Assembly: GCA_965116925.1 (NCBI GenBank)
Contig: OZ220744.1
Location: 5,248,001-5,312,000, forward strand
Reading direction: 5' to 3'
DNA: 64,000 nt
Origin: Candidatus Poribacteria bacterium
GTDB taxonomy: Bacteria > Poribacteria > WGA-4E > PCPOR2b
The translations under genes and the position numbers were made by a program. Positions 2 to 26,656 of the stretch are shown here, piece by piece. The notes under the pieces were generated by a model that searched no databases, had not been told where the DNA came from, and worked only from the letters and a program-made list of their open reading frames with translations. Position 1 is the stretch's first letter, and every line of letters begins with the position of its first letter.

Positions 2-220
2 CTCGACCACTTATCTTACCAGATTGCAACACGACTCCAGATCCCCCTGACGGACAAACAACAGTTGATAGAGACATTGTCAGTACATCAGCTTTTGGAC
101 CGAGAAATCGAACTTCTTGAGCGAGAAAATCGAAGATTAAAAATAAGCCTACTCGCTCGAAGAAGTTTTGAAAAGCACGACACTAACGTATCACCGTGGA
201 AAAACGCCTCCCTGAATTAA
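2..220 (+). CDS. 3' end of a LON peptidase substrate-binding-domain protein (partial, runs off window start)
   Basis: Frame 2 reads LDHLSYQIATRLQIPLTDKQQLIETL...ASLN*, resembling the C-terminal helices of stand-alone LON N-domain proteins; not in ORF track. Confidence 0.6.
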   Translation, partial: LDHLSYQIATRLQIPLTDKQQLIETLSVHQLLDREIELLERENRRLKISLLARRSFEKHDTNVSPWKNASLN

Positions 221-263
221 ATGGCGATTCTTTCTATCGCCGCTCTCGGAATCGAGGACAACG

Positions 264-902
264 ATGCAACGTCAACTCGCTTCAGATCGCTCTCCTCAAA
301 CATCTGGTTCTCTAATTGCGGTGCGAAATTTTTTCTATGTCAGCAACTTATTATCCATAATACGGCTTGCGCTGACCCCATTCCTCTTTCACACCATCAT
401 TCGTCGATCCCACGTGGCAGTCTTGGTGATAGGGGGATTGGCAATTCTGACCGACATGCTTGATGGTTACTTCGCACGCCGTCTGAATCAGCGCACCAAT
501 CTGGGTAAAATTTTGGATCCAATTGCTGATAAGGCGATAATTAGCGCGGTGATTATCGCCCTCATTTTATCTAATTCAAGCTTTCCGCGCTGGGCTTTTA
601 TCGTTATTATTATTCGAGATGTCTTAATTGTGGTTGCCAACATGTTTCTGTTCCATCGAACGCAGATCATTGCCCGATCTGACGTGTGGGGCAAATGCAC
701 AACCTTTTTCCTCGCAACCGCCTTGGCCCTTTACACCTTGGTAGATAATTTCTTTGAAGGTCGTGGGCCGATCCCTCCGTTTGTTCCCTATTCTGTGTTG
801 TGCATCGGTTTGGTATTTGCGTTAATTTCGGTCGCGAACTACAGCTGGCAGTTGCTGCGTTTATTACAACAGAATAGGGAACAGTCCAAGAAAGCACTGT
901 AA
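264..902 (+). CDS. CDP-alcohol phosphatidyltransferase (PgsA-like)
   Basis: DMLDGYFARRLNQRTNLGKILDPIADK matches the CDP-OH phosphotransferase motif; hydrophobic helices. Confidence 0.9.
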   Translation: MQRQLASDRSPQTSGSLIAVRNFFYVSNLLSIIRLALTPFLFHTIIRRSHVAVLVIGGLAILTDMLDGYFARRLNQRTNLGKILDPIADKAIISAVIIALILSNSSFPRWAFIVIIIRDVLIVVANMFLFHRTQIIARSDVWGKCTTFFLATALALYTLVDNFFEGRGPIPPFVPYSVLCIGLVFALISVANYSWQLLRLLQQNREQSKKAL

Positions 903-926
903 CAATCAAGTCGAAGAACATAAAAT

Positions 927-1421
927 ATGGCAGTTCCGCTTACCGTATCCGAAATTGCGAATATGATTGGCGTCGAAGAGGCTATCATTCGACAGACCCT
1001 TGAACGCCGTGACGAAGATCTCGCTCCCTATCTGCACGCCCCCGATGCCTCGGGAGAAGAAGCAGATGCCAACGTTTCACCTTCCCAACCTCAAACGCCG
1101 CTTTTAAGGCGTGAAGGGCTGCCATTGCTCATCACCAAACTGGCGTTTAATATCCCAACCTCAGACATTATTGAAAACCTCGCTAGTCAGGTGTTGCACC
1201 TCATGCTTGTTCAAGAGCAGAATACGGATTTGACAAGCAAACATCAAGAGTTACAAGAACAAAATGACCAGTTGCAACACCACACCAAAGAATTGCAACA
1301 AAGGGTTGATTCCTTAGAAAATGAGCTAGCAGAACAAATCCAGCTACGGGAAAAGGTTGAAGCTGAGTCTCGCAAAGGATTTTGGAGTATCTTCGGACGA
1401 CGAGAGTCCAAGAGTTCCTAG
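927..1421 (+). CDS. hypothetical protein: N-terminal HTH-like segment, coiled coil, C-terminal amphipathic helix
   Basis: LTVSEIANMIGVEEAIIRQ; Q/E/L heptads; ends KGFWSIFGRR. Confidence 0.65.
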   Translation: MAVPLTVSEIANMIGVEEAIIRQTLERRDEDLAPYLHAPDASGEEADANVSPSQPQTPLLRREGLPLLITKLAFNIPTSDIIENLASQVLHLMLVQEQNTDLTSKHQELQEQNDQLQHHTKELQQRVDSLENELAEQIQLREKVEAESRKGFWSIFGRRESKSS

Positions 1422-22260: not shown

Positions 22261-22376
22261 TAGGAGTTACGCCCTTCAGATTGTAGTTGCCCGATTTATC
22301 GGGCGTTGGTGATAGTTGCCGGCGGCGATTCATCGCTGAACTACAAAGCTTTGAGCGTTCAACTGCGTAAGTCCTT
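22261..22376. mobile_element. MITE, AGGA(G/C)TTACGC...GCGTAAGTCCT family
   Basis: Inverted termini plus internal GTAGTTGCCCGATTTATCGGGC; related copies at 23139 and 33555. Confidence 0.65.
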
Positions 22377-22451: not shown

Positions 22452-22478
22452 TGAACCTTTTTTCCCCCTGCGGTGTCA
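22452..22478 (+). promoter_or_regulatory. putative ECF-type promoter upstream of the sigma gene
   Basis: TGAACC-N16-TGTCA, 19 nt before ATG 22498; fits the general ECF AAC/GTC pattern. Confidence 0.5.
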
Positions 22479-22497: not shown

Positions 22498-23112
22498 ATG
22501 ATGGAGCAATCAGACCAAACCCTCATTCGCAAGATCGTGAAGCGCGATGCCACTGCTTTTGAAACACTTTTTGCACGGCACAGTGCGTCTGTCCGTCAAC
22601 ATATCCTTAGCATTGTGCAAGTTGAAAGTGCCGCTGAGGATTTGGTTCAGGAGGTATTTTTGCGTGTCTGGACACGCGCCGAACAGTGGAATGGTCAAGG
22701 CGAGTTCAAGGGTTGGCTTTTCCGCATCGCAACGAATCTTGCCCTCAATCATCTGCGAACCGTGCAGCGACAGCGGCAGGAGCCCCTTGAAACACCGCCG
22801 GACGAATTCGACGACGAGGATGAACGTTCGCCGGATCCGGATTGGCTGGTCGATACCTCGTCGCGTGGTCCCGAAGTGATAGTGGAACAAGCCGAGCGAT
22901 CCCAGCTGCTCTGGCAACTTATTGATGGATTGCCCCAAGAGAAACGAGAAGTGCTCCACCTCATATATCAGAAAGAGATGGCGCTTCGGGAAGTTGCCAT
23001 AGAGCTGGGTATTCCAGAAGGCACCGTGAAGTCGCGTTTACACTACTCCATAAGACATCTCGCCCGTGAATGGAAGGAAATTGCAAGCGGTTGGGAAGAA
23101 GATAAAGAATAA
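22498..23112 (+). CDS. ECF (group 4) RNA polymerase sigma factor
   Basis: Region 2 AEDLVQEVFLRVW / FKGWLFRIATNLALNHLR; region 4 EVAIELGIPEGTVKSRLH. Confidence 0.95.
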   Translation: MMEQSDQTLIRKIVKRDATAFETLFARHSASVRQHILSIVQVESAAEDLVQEVFLRVWTRAEQWNGQGEFKGWLFRIATNLALNHLRTVQRQRQEPLETPPDEFDDEDERSPDPDWLVDTSSRGPEVIVEQAERSQLLWQLIDGLPQEKREVLHLIYQKEMALREVAIELGIPEGTVKSRLHYSIRHLAREWKEIASGWEEDKE

Positions 23113-23138
23113 GCGAGTAGGGACATTCCACACTCTAC

Positions 23139-23260
23139 AGGACTTACGCACTCCAGATTGTAGTTGCCCGATTTATCGGGCGTATCGGGGCAGGGATGCC
23201 CCTCCCACACGTCCTTCAGTCGGGAGGAAGGGCTTTGACCGTTCAGCTGCGTAAGTCTTA
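23139..23260. mobile_element. MITE, AGGACTTACGC family, between sigma and mini-RNAP genes
   Basis: AGGACTTACGCA ... TGCGTAAGTCTT with the same internal palindrome as 22261. Confidence 0.65.
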
Positions 23261-23312
23261 TCTATAATTTACACAAACGGAATATGCAATACGAAGGAAA
23301 TAGGAGGATAGC

Positions 23313-26300
23313 ATGTCACACAACATCACTACATTTTGGCACAAGGAATCCTTTGAGGAATTGATGAAAGAACGGCTGCCAGAGCTTCTTGCTGACCGGG
23401 TGCCGCTCGCCGGTTATCATTTTGATTCAACCGGAGGATACACCTGCCGTGTCAGAATCGTGCTGGCATCAACTGAGGGCTATGTTGAGGTTGAATACAT
23501 GGACATTCCGCAGCCTGATGGAAACGGTATGTTCACTCTCGACGGTGAACCTTATGTTGTCGTGCCGCTCGCTTCAACCGTGGAACTGGAACAAGCGAAA
23601 ATTGAGTGTATGGGTGATCAACTGTACGACTACTTCAAGGCGCGTATCAGGGAAGCACCGCCGGATATAGAATGGGATACGTCGCTTGTCCGCTCATGGC
23701 TTCCGATTGATAGATGGGTGCGTGAATTCTTTAGTGATACATTCACCGCTCAGGAACTGTCCCATACTAACTGGCTCGACAAACATACACATCTACGTCG
23801 GGTACGGATTTCGCAGGGGAATCAGGTGTTTAGCCCCGGACACTTTGGACGGACTTGTCCATTTGAAACGCCAGAGGGACCAAATGTTGGCAAGATTCTG
23901 ACGATTGCGAGGGGTGCGGAGATTCGCGATGGAAAATTGGTCATCATGGATGAAAGTCCTGAAGCAACACTTGGTCTGTCCGCCGCACTGATCCCTTTTC
24001 TCGAACACAATGATCCGCCGCGAATACTCATGGGTGCGAACATGATGCGCCAATGGTTGTCTCCTTCTGCTCCAGAAACCGCACCGATTAGCTGTCCCAA
24101 CGGAGTGTCAAGAGTGGCTGCTTCTCCGGAACCTGCGCTTGTCCAGACAGGGTACGAGCCTGATGCTCCCGACTTTTGGTGTGGGCGTAATCTGTTGACC
24201 GCTTTTATCTCTTGGGGCGGGGATACCTTTGAGGACGGCATCGCGATTAGTGAATCGTGTGCTGCGCGTCTAAATTTTCCTTACGCTATTGAACCGGGCG
24301 ATAAAATTAGTAACCGTCACGGAACGAAAGGGGTCATTTCGCGCATCTTACCTGACGATGAGATGCCCCATCTTGCCGATGGCACACCGGTAGAACTCGT
24401 TTTCAGTTTTGGTGCTTTGCATGGACGGATGAACTTTGGTCAAATCCGAGAAGCCGTCATGGGCCGCATTGCGCGGGCGGAAGGAGAAACCGCTATTGTG
24501 CCGCCATTTCAAGCCCCCAATGCCGATCAACTCCGTGAGCGACTCCAAAAGGTAGGCCTGCCTGAAGATGGGATGGAAACCCTCACGTCTGGACCTAACG
24601 GTAAGAAACTGGATCGACCGAGTACGGTTGGTTGGGTCTATTGGGGAAAGACGGTTCACATCGCGCTGGATAAGCTCAAGGCCTCCGAACCCATCGTTCA
24701 CGAGGCACCTATATACCATCAGGGGCTTGGCGAACTTGAATACTATACACTACGCAACATTTCAGCATTTGAGACATTGCGAGAACATTTCAACACCCGT
24801 GCTTCAACGCGAGTAGATGCGGAGACACTTCCCGATCGCGTTACGGGGGGGACAGTTGAGCAGGCGGGACCACCGACGCCGATGTTTGCCAATCTCAAGG
24901 AGCGACTGTCGGCGGGGGGCATCCACGCTAACTTTGATGGTGACAAACTGACCTTCCAATTTGCGAGTCCAATTGGGAATACACTCCAGCTTGCCCAGCC
25001 GGTTCCCCATCCGTGGCTACATGCTCAAGCTATTGATGAAGTTGGTATATGTGAAGACATTTCTGAGTATCGTGCACTTGCCGATGTCAATGCTAGAGCA
25101 GAGCGAATGTTTGCAAATGATGCGCCGGAAAGCCTAACCCTCCAAACCCTCAAACAACTCCAAACACGTCTTGCAGAATATTTCGACGCACTTCTAAGTC
25201 CCGCAGATATGCGCTTTACGGCACGGACGCTTTTCAGCGGGCGCAGCGTCATCGTACCAGATGCGGAGTTACGTGCTGATCAGGTTGGCATCCCTGAGCA
25301 GATGGCGTGGGCACTTTTCGGGCTGCAGGTTGCAAGAGAGCTTGGTGATACCAAAGAGGTACAGGGAAAAAGCCAGAGGGCGACGCATCTCCTTGATGAA
25401 TTGATGGCGCGTTCATGGGTAATTGTACATCGAGCACCTGCGTTTACGCCTACCTCCTTTGTTGCATTCCATCCAGTGCGGCAGCCAGACCGTGCCATTC
25501 GTGTTCCTCCCTTTGTTTGTGAATTAATGAACGCTGATTTTGATGGCGACCAAGCGGCGATTTTTCTGCCCATCACAGCGGAGGGTCAACGGGAAGCCGG
25601 TGAGCAGCTGTCTATCGCTGGGCATCTCAAACGAGATCCGAATATATGTGCAGCCTTAGCCCCGGGACATGATGCGATATGGGGGTTGGCAAGTTTAAGT
25701 CTCACACCCGAAGGGCGTGATGAACTCTCAGAAATTGTCGGGATGGAGATTGTTATTCCTGAAGGTTTGGTCACGCGGCACTCGTTAGCGGATACGCTGA
25801 AAACACTCCTCAAACGCGAAGGGATTGATCGCACCATTGAAGTCGCTGAACGTCTGATGCAGCGTGGACTCGAAATTGTAAAGGAATCGGGAGCATCTAT
25901 GAGTCCGTTCCTCAGTAGAGGCGATGGTAGTCCGCCCGTTCCTACAGATCCCGATGATGCAGCAGCGTGGAATGCTTACGCGGAAGAACTTATGGAATGG
26001 ATTGCCGCTTACGAAAACTTTGCTGATAACAACTTGGGACCACACATCCTCGCAGTCAAAAGCCGCGCCTTTACAAGCAGACTTTATCGACTCGCGTGTG
26101 TTGTCGGGGCACGAGGGACAGTTTCAGATATTCGAGATTTCGTTTGGACAATCAGGATGGTGGCAAGCCGAGGATTTGCACAAGGGACAGTTTCAGGCAT
26201 TGGAGACGGGGATATCGTGATTCGTAACGGGTATTGCGATGGTTTAACATCTGATGAACTTTATGCGCTCTGTGTCGGATCACGGGAAGGGCTTGTTCGA

Positions 26301-26501
26301 TTCAACTCCGAACTACAACGCGTTGCATGGGAACTACGCGACAGCAGCCAATCAAAAGGATTTACTGTGCTGTCTCGTGCGATGCGAGCCAAGCAGCCCG
26401 GTATCGTTTTCGCACGCGCCGCAGCGTGCGGTGAAGTTGATCCGCTTACAGATATTGACAGCCGGCTTTTCGTCGGGCTGCCCGTCACAACGTCCGAGTG
26501 A
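23313..26501 (+). CDS. miniaturised single-chain RNA polymerase beta-beta' fusion (RpoB/RpoC-derived two-barrel polymerase)
   Basis: In order: GMFTLDG, THLRR, GRTCPFETPEGPNVG, LIPFLEHND...MGANMMRQ, FEDGIAISE, GDKISNRHGTKGVIS, GRMNFGQ, QGLGELE (RpoB), then SGRSVIV, HRAP, NADFDGDQ, GSREGL (RpoC); AGGAGG RBS. Confidence 0.93.
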   Translation: MSHNITTFWHKESFEELMKERLPELLADRVPLAGYHFDSTGGYTCRVRIVLASTEGYVEVEYMDIPQPDGNGMFTLDGEPYVVVPLASTVELEQAKIECMGDQLYDYFKARIREAPPDIEWDTSLVRSWLPIDRWVREFFSDTFTAQELSHTNWLDKHTHLRRVRISQGNQVFSPGHFGRTCPFETPEGPNVGKILTIARGAEIRDGKLVIMDESPEATLGLSAALIPFLEHNDPPRILMGANMMRQWLSPSAPETAPISCPNGVSRVAASPEPALVQTGYEPDAPDFWCGRNLLTAFISWGGDTFEDGIAISESCAARLNFPYAIEPGDKISNRHGTKGVISRILPDDEMPHLADGTPVELVFSFGALHGRMNFGQIREAVMGRIARAEGETAIVPPFQAPNADQLRERLQKVGLPEDGMETLTSGPNGKKLDRPSTVGWVYWGKTVHIALDKLKASEPIVHEAPIYHQGLGELEYYTLRNISAFETLREHFNTRASTRVDAETLPDRVTGGTVEQAGPPTPMFANLKERLSAGGIHANFDGDKLTFQFASPIGNTLQLAQPVPHPWLHAQAIDEVGICEDISEYRALADVNARAERMFANDAPESLTLQTLKQLQTRLAEYFDALLSPADMRFTARTLFSGRSVIVPDAELRADQVGIPEQMAWALFGLQVARELGDTKEVQGKSQRATHLLDELMARSWVIVHRAPAFTPTSFVAFHPVRQPDRAIRVPPFVCELMNADFDGDQAAIFLPITAEGQREAGEQLSIAGHLKRDPNICAALAPGHDAIWGLASLSLTPEGRDELSEIVGMEIVIPEGLVTRHSLADTLKTLLKREGIDRTIEVAERLMQRGLEIVKESGASMSPFLSRGDGSPPVPTDPDDAAAWNAYAEELMEWIAAYENFADNNLGPHILAVKSRAFTSRLYRLACVVGARGTVSDIRDFVWTIRMVASRGFAQGTVSGIGDGDIVIRNGYCDGLTSDELYALCVGSREGLVRFNSELQRVAWELRDSSQSKGFTVLSRAMRAKQPGIVFARAAACGEVDPLTDIDSRLFVGLPVTTSE

Positions 26502-26524
26502 CACGCACGTGAGTTAAAAATCTT

Positions 26525-26639
26525 GGCTCATGTTAAGAATTAGTGCAAAAGCATTGACTTACCTCAAAAACCGTAGGCGGGGCATCTTGCCCCGCCGTCA
26601 ACGCGTTCATCGTAATTGCACTCCGTTTTTACATGAGCC
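26525..26639. mobile_element. MITE with GGCTCATGT...ACATGAGCC termini and 8-bp TSD AAAATCTT (ISL3-like)
   Basis: AAAATCTT at 26517-26524 and 26640-26647. Confidence 0.8.
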
Positions 26640-26656
26640 AAAATCTTATGTGGGGG

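Follow-up and report, generated by a model that had tools for sequence, protein, structure and literature searches.

Reduced relatives of the bacterial beta/beta' RNA polymerase have been described. Orf6 of pGKL2 (K2ORF6p), carried by yeast cytoplasmic linear plasmids, is an Rpb2::Rpb1-like fused polymerase of 982 residues (PMC2919709); about half of each parent has been deleted from it, no trigger, rudder or lid is detectable in it (PMC2919709, PMC6211774), and it has been traced to a viral origin (PMC6211774). YonO, from the Bacillus prophage SPbeta, is a processive single-chain two-barrel enzyme of ~100 kDa with no reported trigger-loop homology; it equals the multisubunit enzyme in the efficiency of phosphodiester bond formation, works with lower accuracy and has no RNA cleavage activity (PMC5467207). 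The non-virion polymerases of AR9 and PhiKZ are of a reduced beta/beta' type with their own promoter-recognition subunit, and gp64 of P23-45 is a compact crab-claw enzyme of the same reduced type. Here we describe a single-chain beta::beta' mini RNA polymerase, P0001, which is encoded by an intact open reading frame of 1062 codons (23313..26501, plus strand) in a 64,000-nucleotide stretch of a Candidatus Poribacteria genome (GCA_965116925.1, contig OZ220744.1, positions 5,248,001 to 5,312,000), hereafter the window, and which follows a gene for a sigma factor of the extracytoplasmic function (ECF) type. No description of this mini polymerase family was found in the literature searched, and a term search of the main text of the ECF re-classification paper gave no occurrence of rpoB, rpoC or Rpb.

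P0001 joins two halves head to tail, the first of them beta-like (residues 1-543) and the second beta'-like (542-1062). It matched the Pfam families RNA_pol_Rpb2_3 (residues 149-204, E 6.9e-9), RNA_pol_Rpb2_6 (326-457, E 4.5e-41) and RNA_pol_Rpb1_2 (691-764, E 2.5e-18), and by these matches its homology to beta/beta' polymerases is far beyond chance. It fell below the curated cut-offs of the NCBIfam models for rpoB (TIGR02013; 184.9 bits against 801.15), rpoC (TIGR02386; 82.2 against 963.5) and fused rpoBC (177.4 against 4632). The host genome is one 6.47-Mb contig, 99% complete, and carries ordinary rpoB (1378 aa) and rpoC (1439 aa) genes elsewhere, indicating that the mini polymerase is an extra, accessory gene. 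Canonical RpoB and RpoC and the fused beta::beta' forms of the Helicobacter and Wolbachia type (NF011417, NF007172) share with P0001 both barrels, the GDKxxxRHGxKG and NADFDGD motifs and the fork region, together with the bridge helix, the clamp helices and the C-terminal segment, and the order of beta before beta' is that of the fused forms. P0001 differs from the canonical enzyme in size (1062 residues against ~2750, or 1342 + 1407 in E. coli and 1378 + 1439 in its own genome), in the absence of the flap and lobe of beta and of the Zn domain, lid, rudder, trigger loop and jaw of beta', and in being an accessory enzyme beside the normal pair.

The closest described systems resemble P0001 in some of these respects and not in others. 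Orf6, likened to it by description only, is also a single chain of ~1000 residues with the same order of halves and with trigger, lid and rudder lost; its beta' C-terminal regions are on a separate small subunit (ORF7), whereas those of P0001 are in the same chain, and it belongs to a eukaryotic plasmid, lacks a sigma partner and relies on another kind of promoter (UCS). YonO is likewise a single-chain two-barrel enzyme without trigger-loop homology, but it shares only a few catalytic residues with cellular enzymes according to its source (PMC5467207), whereas P0001 matches beta at E 1e-41 and beta' at E 1e-18. YonO is moreover phage-borne and needs no sigma, whereas members of the mini family lie on chromosomes in a pair with an ECF sigma gene, and it is by this description of YonO that the family is set apart from it. 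The AR9 and PhiKZ enzymes consist of several polypeptides, are viral and, as far as the sources report, use specificity subunits that are not ordinary ECF sigmas, unlike the mini enzyme, which is one chain accompanied by a standard sigma2-sigma4 ECF sigma on a bacterial chromosome. What appears to be new, by the literature searched, is a cellular, single-chain, sigma-paired, trigger-loop-less form of the beta/beta' two-barrel lineage.

The beta-like half (23313..24941, plus strand) retains the skeleton of beta from the N-terminus to the last residues. A structure model of residues 1-550 built with 87 sequences (m93467a62e6f8) had a predicted local distance difference test score (pLDDT) of 93.7 and a predicted template modelling score of 0.88. 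In VIA structural alignments its residues 1..523 aligned with 9n9q_F 18..1246 (Z 30.3, 488 aligned, 32% identity) and its residues 1..545 with 6wmp_C 22..1355 (Z 29.4, 524 aligned). Identity in these alignments was 30-32% with bacterial chains, 25-26% with archaeal chains and 20-22% with eukaryotic chains, an order that would fit descent from a bacterial enzyme. With hhalign, residues 10-86 corresponded to E. coli beta 31-148 (E 5e-4), the GxFxxxG motif included, and residues 470-543 to beta 1268-1341 of 1342 (E 9.8e-6). The fork region is kept (130-202, corresponding to beta 496-579), residues 209-258 correspond to beta 650-698, and both parts of the beta barrel are retained. Beta residues ~150-490, comprising the lobe and most of the protrusion, have no counterpart in P0001.

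The flap spans more than 100 residues in normal enzymes. In P0001 the site of the missing flap runs from D308 (FEDG) to K331 (GDK) (24234..24305, plus strand), with 22 residues between them: FEDG starts at 306 and GDK at 329, placing D308 and K331 23 apart, whereas in E. coli beta NFED at 811 and GDKM at 1063 place D814 and K1065 251 apart. By phmmer, residues 279-317 aligned with beta 785-823 and residues 323-413 with beta 1057-1147, and ~230 beta residues (the flap and SI2) were left without a counterpart. The model of the beta half contained no flap domain between strands 309-313 and 331-334, only a helix and a loop.

The beta'-like half follows without a linker. At the junction (residues 541-545, 24933..24947, plus strand) beta ends at residue 543 and beta' residue 16 corresponds to residue 542. 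In a full-length AlphaFold model, residues 542..1062 aligned with E. coli beta' 16..1365 (Z 18.8, root-mean-square deviation 3.2 A, 484 aligned, 24% identity). Motif spacing and hhalign place the site of the missing zipper and Zn-binding domain between P553 (FASP) and P565 (PHPWL) (24969..25007, plus strand); FASP lies at 550 and PHPWL at 565, with 11 residues and no cysteine between them, and C580 is the only cysteine in residues 530-640. In E. coli beta', LASP is at 24 and HIWF at 113, with cysteines 70, 72, 85 and 88 between. Residues 555-582 aligned with beta' 102-129 (E 0.014). The lid is most likely gone as well, since only ~15 residues lie between PHPWL and the first clamp helix; one hhalign path instead aligned 562-583 with beta' 242-265, which makes the placement of these few residues tentative. 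The clamp helices, the coiled coil on which sigma region 2 docks, are retained (residues 584-627, 25062..25193, plus strand): the family hidden Markov model (HMM) and hhalign equate them with E. coli beta' 266-310, the model forms the pair from helices 584-601 and 606-627, and N593 and P605 are invariant. A gap of ~25 residues follows, at the rudder and part of switch 2. Residues 636-795 correspond to beta' 344-513, the barrel with the catalytic Mg2+ loop NADFDGD (residues 740-746, 25530..25550, plus strand; beta' 458-464); past the barrel ~55 residues are absent, and the rim-helix region is shortened.

The bridge helix (residues 977-1011, 26241..26345, plus strand) was located by the family HMM, whose positions 886-962 aligned with beta' 720-798 (the F region and bridge helix; E 1.2e-5), and by model helix 980-1011. 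Its first part, GLTSDELYALCVGSREGL, makes up residues 977-994 (nucleotides 26241-26294), and G977 and L978 were kept in all of the 36 sequences over which conservation in the beta' half was counted. By the model and the motif spacing, a loop of ~7 residues (1012-1018, 26346..26366, plus strand) stands at the site of the trigger loop, jaw and SI3. GSREGL at 989 and AAACGE at 1036 are 47 apart; in E. coli beta' GARKGL is at 778, the trigger-loop motif GTQLTMRTFH at 927 and AAVAGK at 1335, a distance of 557 from first to last. No helical hairpin was present in the full-length model between the bridge helix (980-1011) and helices 1019-1039. The chain then continues into a region H-like segment of the beta' C-terminus (residues 1014-1058, 26352..26486, plus strand). 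The best local hhalign match of this tail, residues 1032-1055 to beta' 1331-1354, is weak alone (E 0.2), but the structural alignment, which carries the tail to beta' 1363-1367, confirms the assignment independently, and R1022, A1023, A1036, A1037 and G1055 were kept in 36/36 sequences.

We then asked how general these deletions are, using 185 full-length family members that were retrieved and aligned to the family profile. The D308-K331 gap was 22 residues in 175 of the 185 and at most 47; the FASP-PHPWL gap was 9-17 residues in all of them, with 0-2 cysteines in 540-585; and the distance between the bridge helix and region H was 37-55 residues in all of them, against ~550 in E. coli. Since no member has room at the three sites, the flap, the four-Cys Zn domain and the trigger loop are absent family-wide. 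The preliminary description of this DNA had proposed that the flap was gone (23 residues against about 250), that the beta' Zn-binding domain was gone, and that after a bridge-helix-like stretch at about 26240-26295 the chain jumped to the beta' C-terminal segment without a trigger loop. Each of these points held when the distances were counted exactly, and the complete trigger-helix hairpin and flap that would have contradicted them were looked for in the models, where neither was seen. That description understated the reduction, however, because most of the beta lobe and protrusion, the beta' lid, rudder and jaw and most of the clamp core are missing too.

The residues of the active site were kept throughout this reduction. 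Counted over 87 rows for the beta half, R335 of the beta barrel was kept in 86 (the 87th being a gap), K331 in 80, K339 in 82, R246 in 85 and D308 in 78, with glutamate in five more. In the beta' barrel D744, G745 and D746 were kept in 36/36 sequences, D742 in 33/36, R707 in 35/36 and P709 in 34/36. By alignment R707, P709 and N740 correspond to beta' R425, P427 and N458, which we take to be contacts of the nucleoside triphosphate (NTP) ribose. Identity within the family falls to 38%, and because the catalytic residues are nearly invariant at such identities, the pattern argues for a working ribonucleotide polymerase and not a mere binding protein or a decaying copy. It is from this pattern that we infer polymerase activity.

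The gene directly upstream (22498..23112, plus strand) encodes an ECF sigma factor of 204 aa. Its product matched Sigma70_r2 (E 7.4e-17), Sigma70_r4 (E 2.7e-11) and Sigma70_ECF (E 2.3e-5) in Pfam and scored 114.8 bits with the NCBIfam sigma70-ECF model TIGR02937, above the cut-off of 42.9. To examine the pairing we used 34 family loci, four from a genome-contig search and 30 from a phylum search, which include the window itself and one duplicate (L005 = L094); only four of the 80 loci retained from the genome-contig search were family members, the rest being dominated by ordinary rpoB-rpoC. These loci belong to Poribacteria, Caldilineaceae (Chloroflexota) and Latescibacterota. In 32/34 of them the gene directly upstream on the same strand was an orthologue of the window's ECF sigma gene, matching the window sigma at E 1e-53 to 1e-137, and the exceptions were L110, a fragment with a stop codon, and L114. 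The members of the pair overlap, by 4 or 13 nt, in L103, L007 and L008. Predictions of a complex between the sigma (alignment A2) and polymerase residues 267-1062 (alignment A1), made without controls, scored 0.26 and 0.30 against a mark of 0.32 and count neither for nor against the pairing. Between sigma2 and sigma4 the window sigma has a long and very acidic linker (residues ~97-125; DEFDDEDE...), and a P..W motif within it (P114, W116) is invariant across three phyla. In ECF holoenzymes such a linker passes through the active-site cleft and on through the RNA exit channel, a channel that has lost most of its walls in the mini enzyme.

A promoter-like motif of the ECF type, TGAAC-N15-GGTGTC, lies 20 nt before the sigma start codon (22452..22477, plus strand). 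It was present upstream of the sigma gene in 30/34 loci, the Caldilineaceae (Chloroflexota) locus included, and in extended form it reads GTGAAC...TGCGGTGTCAT. The sequence looks like an ordinary autoregulated ECF promoter. In one locus (L106, G140:C35), where 690 nt separate the sigma gene from the polymerase gene, the motif occurs twice, once before either gene (positions 30 and 1338 of the reversed locus). As a weak hint of expression, contigs from three metatranscriptome runs of two studies cover parts of both genes, with a depth of 2-14 and a likeness of 90-99%; they could stem from related strains or from carried-over DNA, strand, start and level are unreadable from them, and uncovered stretches carry no meaning.

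We lean modestly towards the reading that P0001 is a catalytically competent, reduced two-barrel RNA polymerase, most likely DNA-dependent, that works with the upstream ECF sigma. It would derive from a bacterial rpoB-rpoC pair that was fused and, probably, stripped of nearly every peripheral module. The protein keeps both double-psi barrels with the residues that bind Mg2+ and NTP, the fork region and, at either end of beta, the N- and C-terminal clamp strands; of beta' it also keeps the clamp helices, the bridge helix, the C-terminal segment and a part of switch 2. Missing from beta are the flap and most of the lobe and protrusion, and from beta' the zipper, the Zn-binding domain, the lid and rudder, the trigger loop, the jaw, the insertions and the greater part of the clamp core. 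The retained clamp helices would serve sigma2 as its docking site, and the sigma would read the ordinary ECF-type -35/-10 promoter, which would drive the sigma-polymerase pair itself.

Textbook accounts give the trigger loop a central part in catalysis and fidelity, and have sigma4 positioned, and the RNA exit channel formed, by the flap tip and the Zn domain. The flap-tip helix normally holds sigma4; because this helix is gone, sigma4 would have to be held by something else if the sigma works with the mini enzyme. The suggestion in the preliminary description that promoter recognition is non-standard is therefore supported only in this respect, since the sigma has ordinary sigma2 and sigma4 regions, the -35 and -10 elements look ordinary and the clamp helices are kept. 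Catalysis would proceed without a trigger loop, as in YonO. The same description had also expected a slow or short-product enzyme; this does not follow from the missing trigger loop, because YonO is efficient without trigger-loop homology as far as its source reports (PMC5467207). By analogy with YonO, the mini enzyme would be expected to show lower fidelity and no intrinsic RNA cleavage, and not necessarily slow synthesis.

Several observations weigh against this reading. The genes flanking the module differ among loci and give no hint of targets. A looser motif pattern had 17 matches in the 6.47-Mb genome against 6-7 in shuffled sequences, and a fuzzier one 22 against 12-16; of the 16 matches of the looser pattern other than the module's own, 14 fall within open frames of 280 aa or more and the remaining two within frames of 137 and 145 aa. 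The only clearly intergenic copy in these short-motif scans, which weaker copies could escape, was thus the module's own, and because the other matches lie in open frames no regulon past the sigma-polymerase pair is visible. The sigma could equally use the host core. E. coli R275, E295 and A302 of the clamp helices, which we take to be important for sigma70 binding, are replaced by other residues at the corresponding positions of P0001. On the catalytic side, E307 was kept in only 74/87 rows and N740 in only 26/36 sequences. The full-length AlphaFold model is of moderate confidence (pLDDT 70.1), with values below 50 over residues 174-308 and several stretches in 333-469; remodelling residues 1-550 with 87 sequences cured that problem. 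Helices 1019-1039 of the full-length model could occupy the place of the trigger helices, and according to the P23-45 paper all of the single-chain enzymes that it compares retain the first trigger helix.

Some of the same facts would suit a sigma-independent, special-purpose polymerase, for which the ECF sigma and the host core merely switch the operon on. Such an enzyme would act on unusual templates (nicks, single strands or RNA), and its products would be primers, short RNAs or long transcripts that form R-loops; the short products expected in the preliminary description fall under this reading. P0001 lacks all the parts that build the RNA exit channel and peel RNA off the template (flap, lid, zipper, Zn domain and rudder), the usual holder of sigma4 among them; no further intergenic promoter copy was seen in the genome; and other single-chain two-barrel enzymes work without sigma, YonO being an example (PMC5467207). 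Yet the clamp helices, the main docking site of sigma, survived the loss of more than half of beta', and the retention of the pair in 32/34 loci, with overlapping genes in three of them, exceeds what a simple link between a regulator and its target would need. Enzymes without lid and rudder, moreover, still transcribe double-stranded DNA according to PMC6211774. We regard sigma independence as unlikely, though it deserves to be kept in view.

The distribution of the family bears on a second alternative, which concerns the role of the module and is compatible with either mechanism. A word-indexed protein search gave 1043 matches; the best 120 of these were all 990-1106 aa long and 49-91% identical to P0001, their product names, where given, were 'hypothetical protein' or lists of Pfam domain names, and the organisms named among them were Poribacteria, Hydrogenedentes and Chloroflexota. 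In an exhaustive search family members ran through nearly all of the top 150 representatives. Within the phylum the mini polymerase was present in 30/151 genomes, the window's own counted: 14/19 of its own genus, 4/4 and 9/9 of two other genera, and 0/100 of one family (f3). Identity to relatives in other phyla (44-53%) was about the same as that between families of the phylum (52-55%), which hints at transfer between phyla, and the mini polymerase is possibly an accessory chromosomal module exchanged between them. Among phage records, none of 37 matching records covered at least 80% of the query; none of 68 plasmid records carried a family member; and none of 76 IMG/VR loci was full-length.

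This patchy, accessory spread, the hint of transfer and the one broken copy described below would fit a defence system or a stress back-up. The module might be an accessory transcription unit that escapes the factors or natural products blocking the host polymerase because their binding sites have been deleted, or it might be aimed at invading DNA. Several inhibitors and phage proteins make contact with the trigger loop, flap, lid and Zn domain, which is a point in favour of this role. On the other hand, no PADLOC family matched the polymerase, and for the sigma there was a single weak hit, of the helix-turn-helix kind (E 9e-4); no conserved defence or mobile-element genes adjoin the module, and the phage, plasmid and IMG/VR searches gave no family member. 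We consider a defence or stress role improbable.

A further possibility is that P0001 is a mimic of the core enzyme that does not polymerise, either binding the ECF sigma as an anti-sigma or sigma reservoir or competing for other factors. In favour of this, the protein retains the helices on which sigma docks, and the window shows no separate anti-sigma gene between or beside the sigma and polymerase genes. A binding protein of this kind would hardly explain the near invariance of the catalytic residues of both barrels down to 38% identity or the maintenance of ~1000 residues of polymerase fold, and we think it very improbable. That P0001 is a decaying rpoB-rpoC duplicate or an assembly artefact is next to inconceivable, even with one relative split and interrupted by two in-frame TGA codons, given its intact reading frame, the architecture shared by 185 full-length relatives from several phyla, its place on a single 6.47-Mb chromosome, 99% complete, and the recovery of 85% of the sampled words in one DNA run.

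The broken copy is in G093, a genome of the same genus, at L105 and an adjoining stretch (G093:C2:821383-824204), where the polymerase is in two pieces, with the two TGA codons in the second. It is probably a pseudogene, and the sigma gene upstream of it looks intact. In P0001 itself, an insertion of 22-23 residues (942-964, 26136..26204, plus strand) directly before the bridge helix is confined to the subclade of the window. It was found in two of the 36 rows of alignment A1, P0001 and P0003, which are 1061-1062 aa long against 1039, and was absent from the other 34. The stretch was poorly modelled (pLDDT <50 over 940-965). The insertion resembles a diverged duplication of the adjoining segment; a DNA tandem repeat under the 22 residues was looked for and none was detected.

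The spacer between the sigma and polymerase genes is 200 nt in the window, against 64-73 nt in most close relatives, because a miniature inverted-repeat element of ~110 nt has inserted into it (23143-23255; termini CTTACGCA...TGCGTAAG). Similar copies flank the module at ~22264-22375 and 26524-26640, and ~30 copies with perfect 8-nt termini were found in the genome. Run depth rose 20-40-fold over the element stretches, and many 'joints' between them are repeat artefacts. Other relatives carry different insertions at the same site of the spacer. The spacer itself (23113-23142 and 23256-23312 in the window; L088-L099 among the relatives) is conserved as ...TTTCACAC-TTTATAAT-TTACAC..., which in the window is interrupted by the element. 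This sequence resembles a sigma70-type -10 box and is a candidate second promoter, one that would lie directly before the polymerase gene.

If P0001 does work with its sigma, the 1062-residue chain and the 204-residue ECF sigma may be the smallest known sigma70-family-dependent RNA polymerase, self-contained and self-activating and carried in bacterial chromosomes, a claim that we put forward tentatively and hold less firmly than the reading on which it builds. Sigma-directed initiation would then need no flap tip, Zn domain, lid, rudder or trigger loop, and a cellular lineage would have cut its polymerase down to roughly the core common to all two-barrel enzymes. Because these modules were removed while the active site, the bridge helix, the sigma2 docking helices, an ECF sigma and a promoter were kept, the family amounts to a natural deletion experiment on the minimal needs of a sigma-dependent polymerase. 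The family is large, with at least 185 full-length members in several phyla, and the enzyme is small enough to be expressed as one protein and, if active, could provide a compact orthogonal transcription system. The finding also bears on the relation of single-chain to multisubunit two-barrel polymerases.

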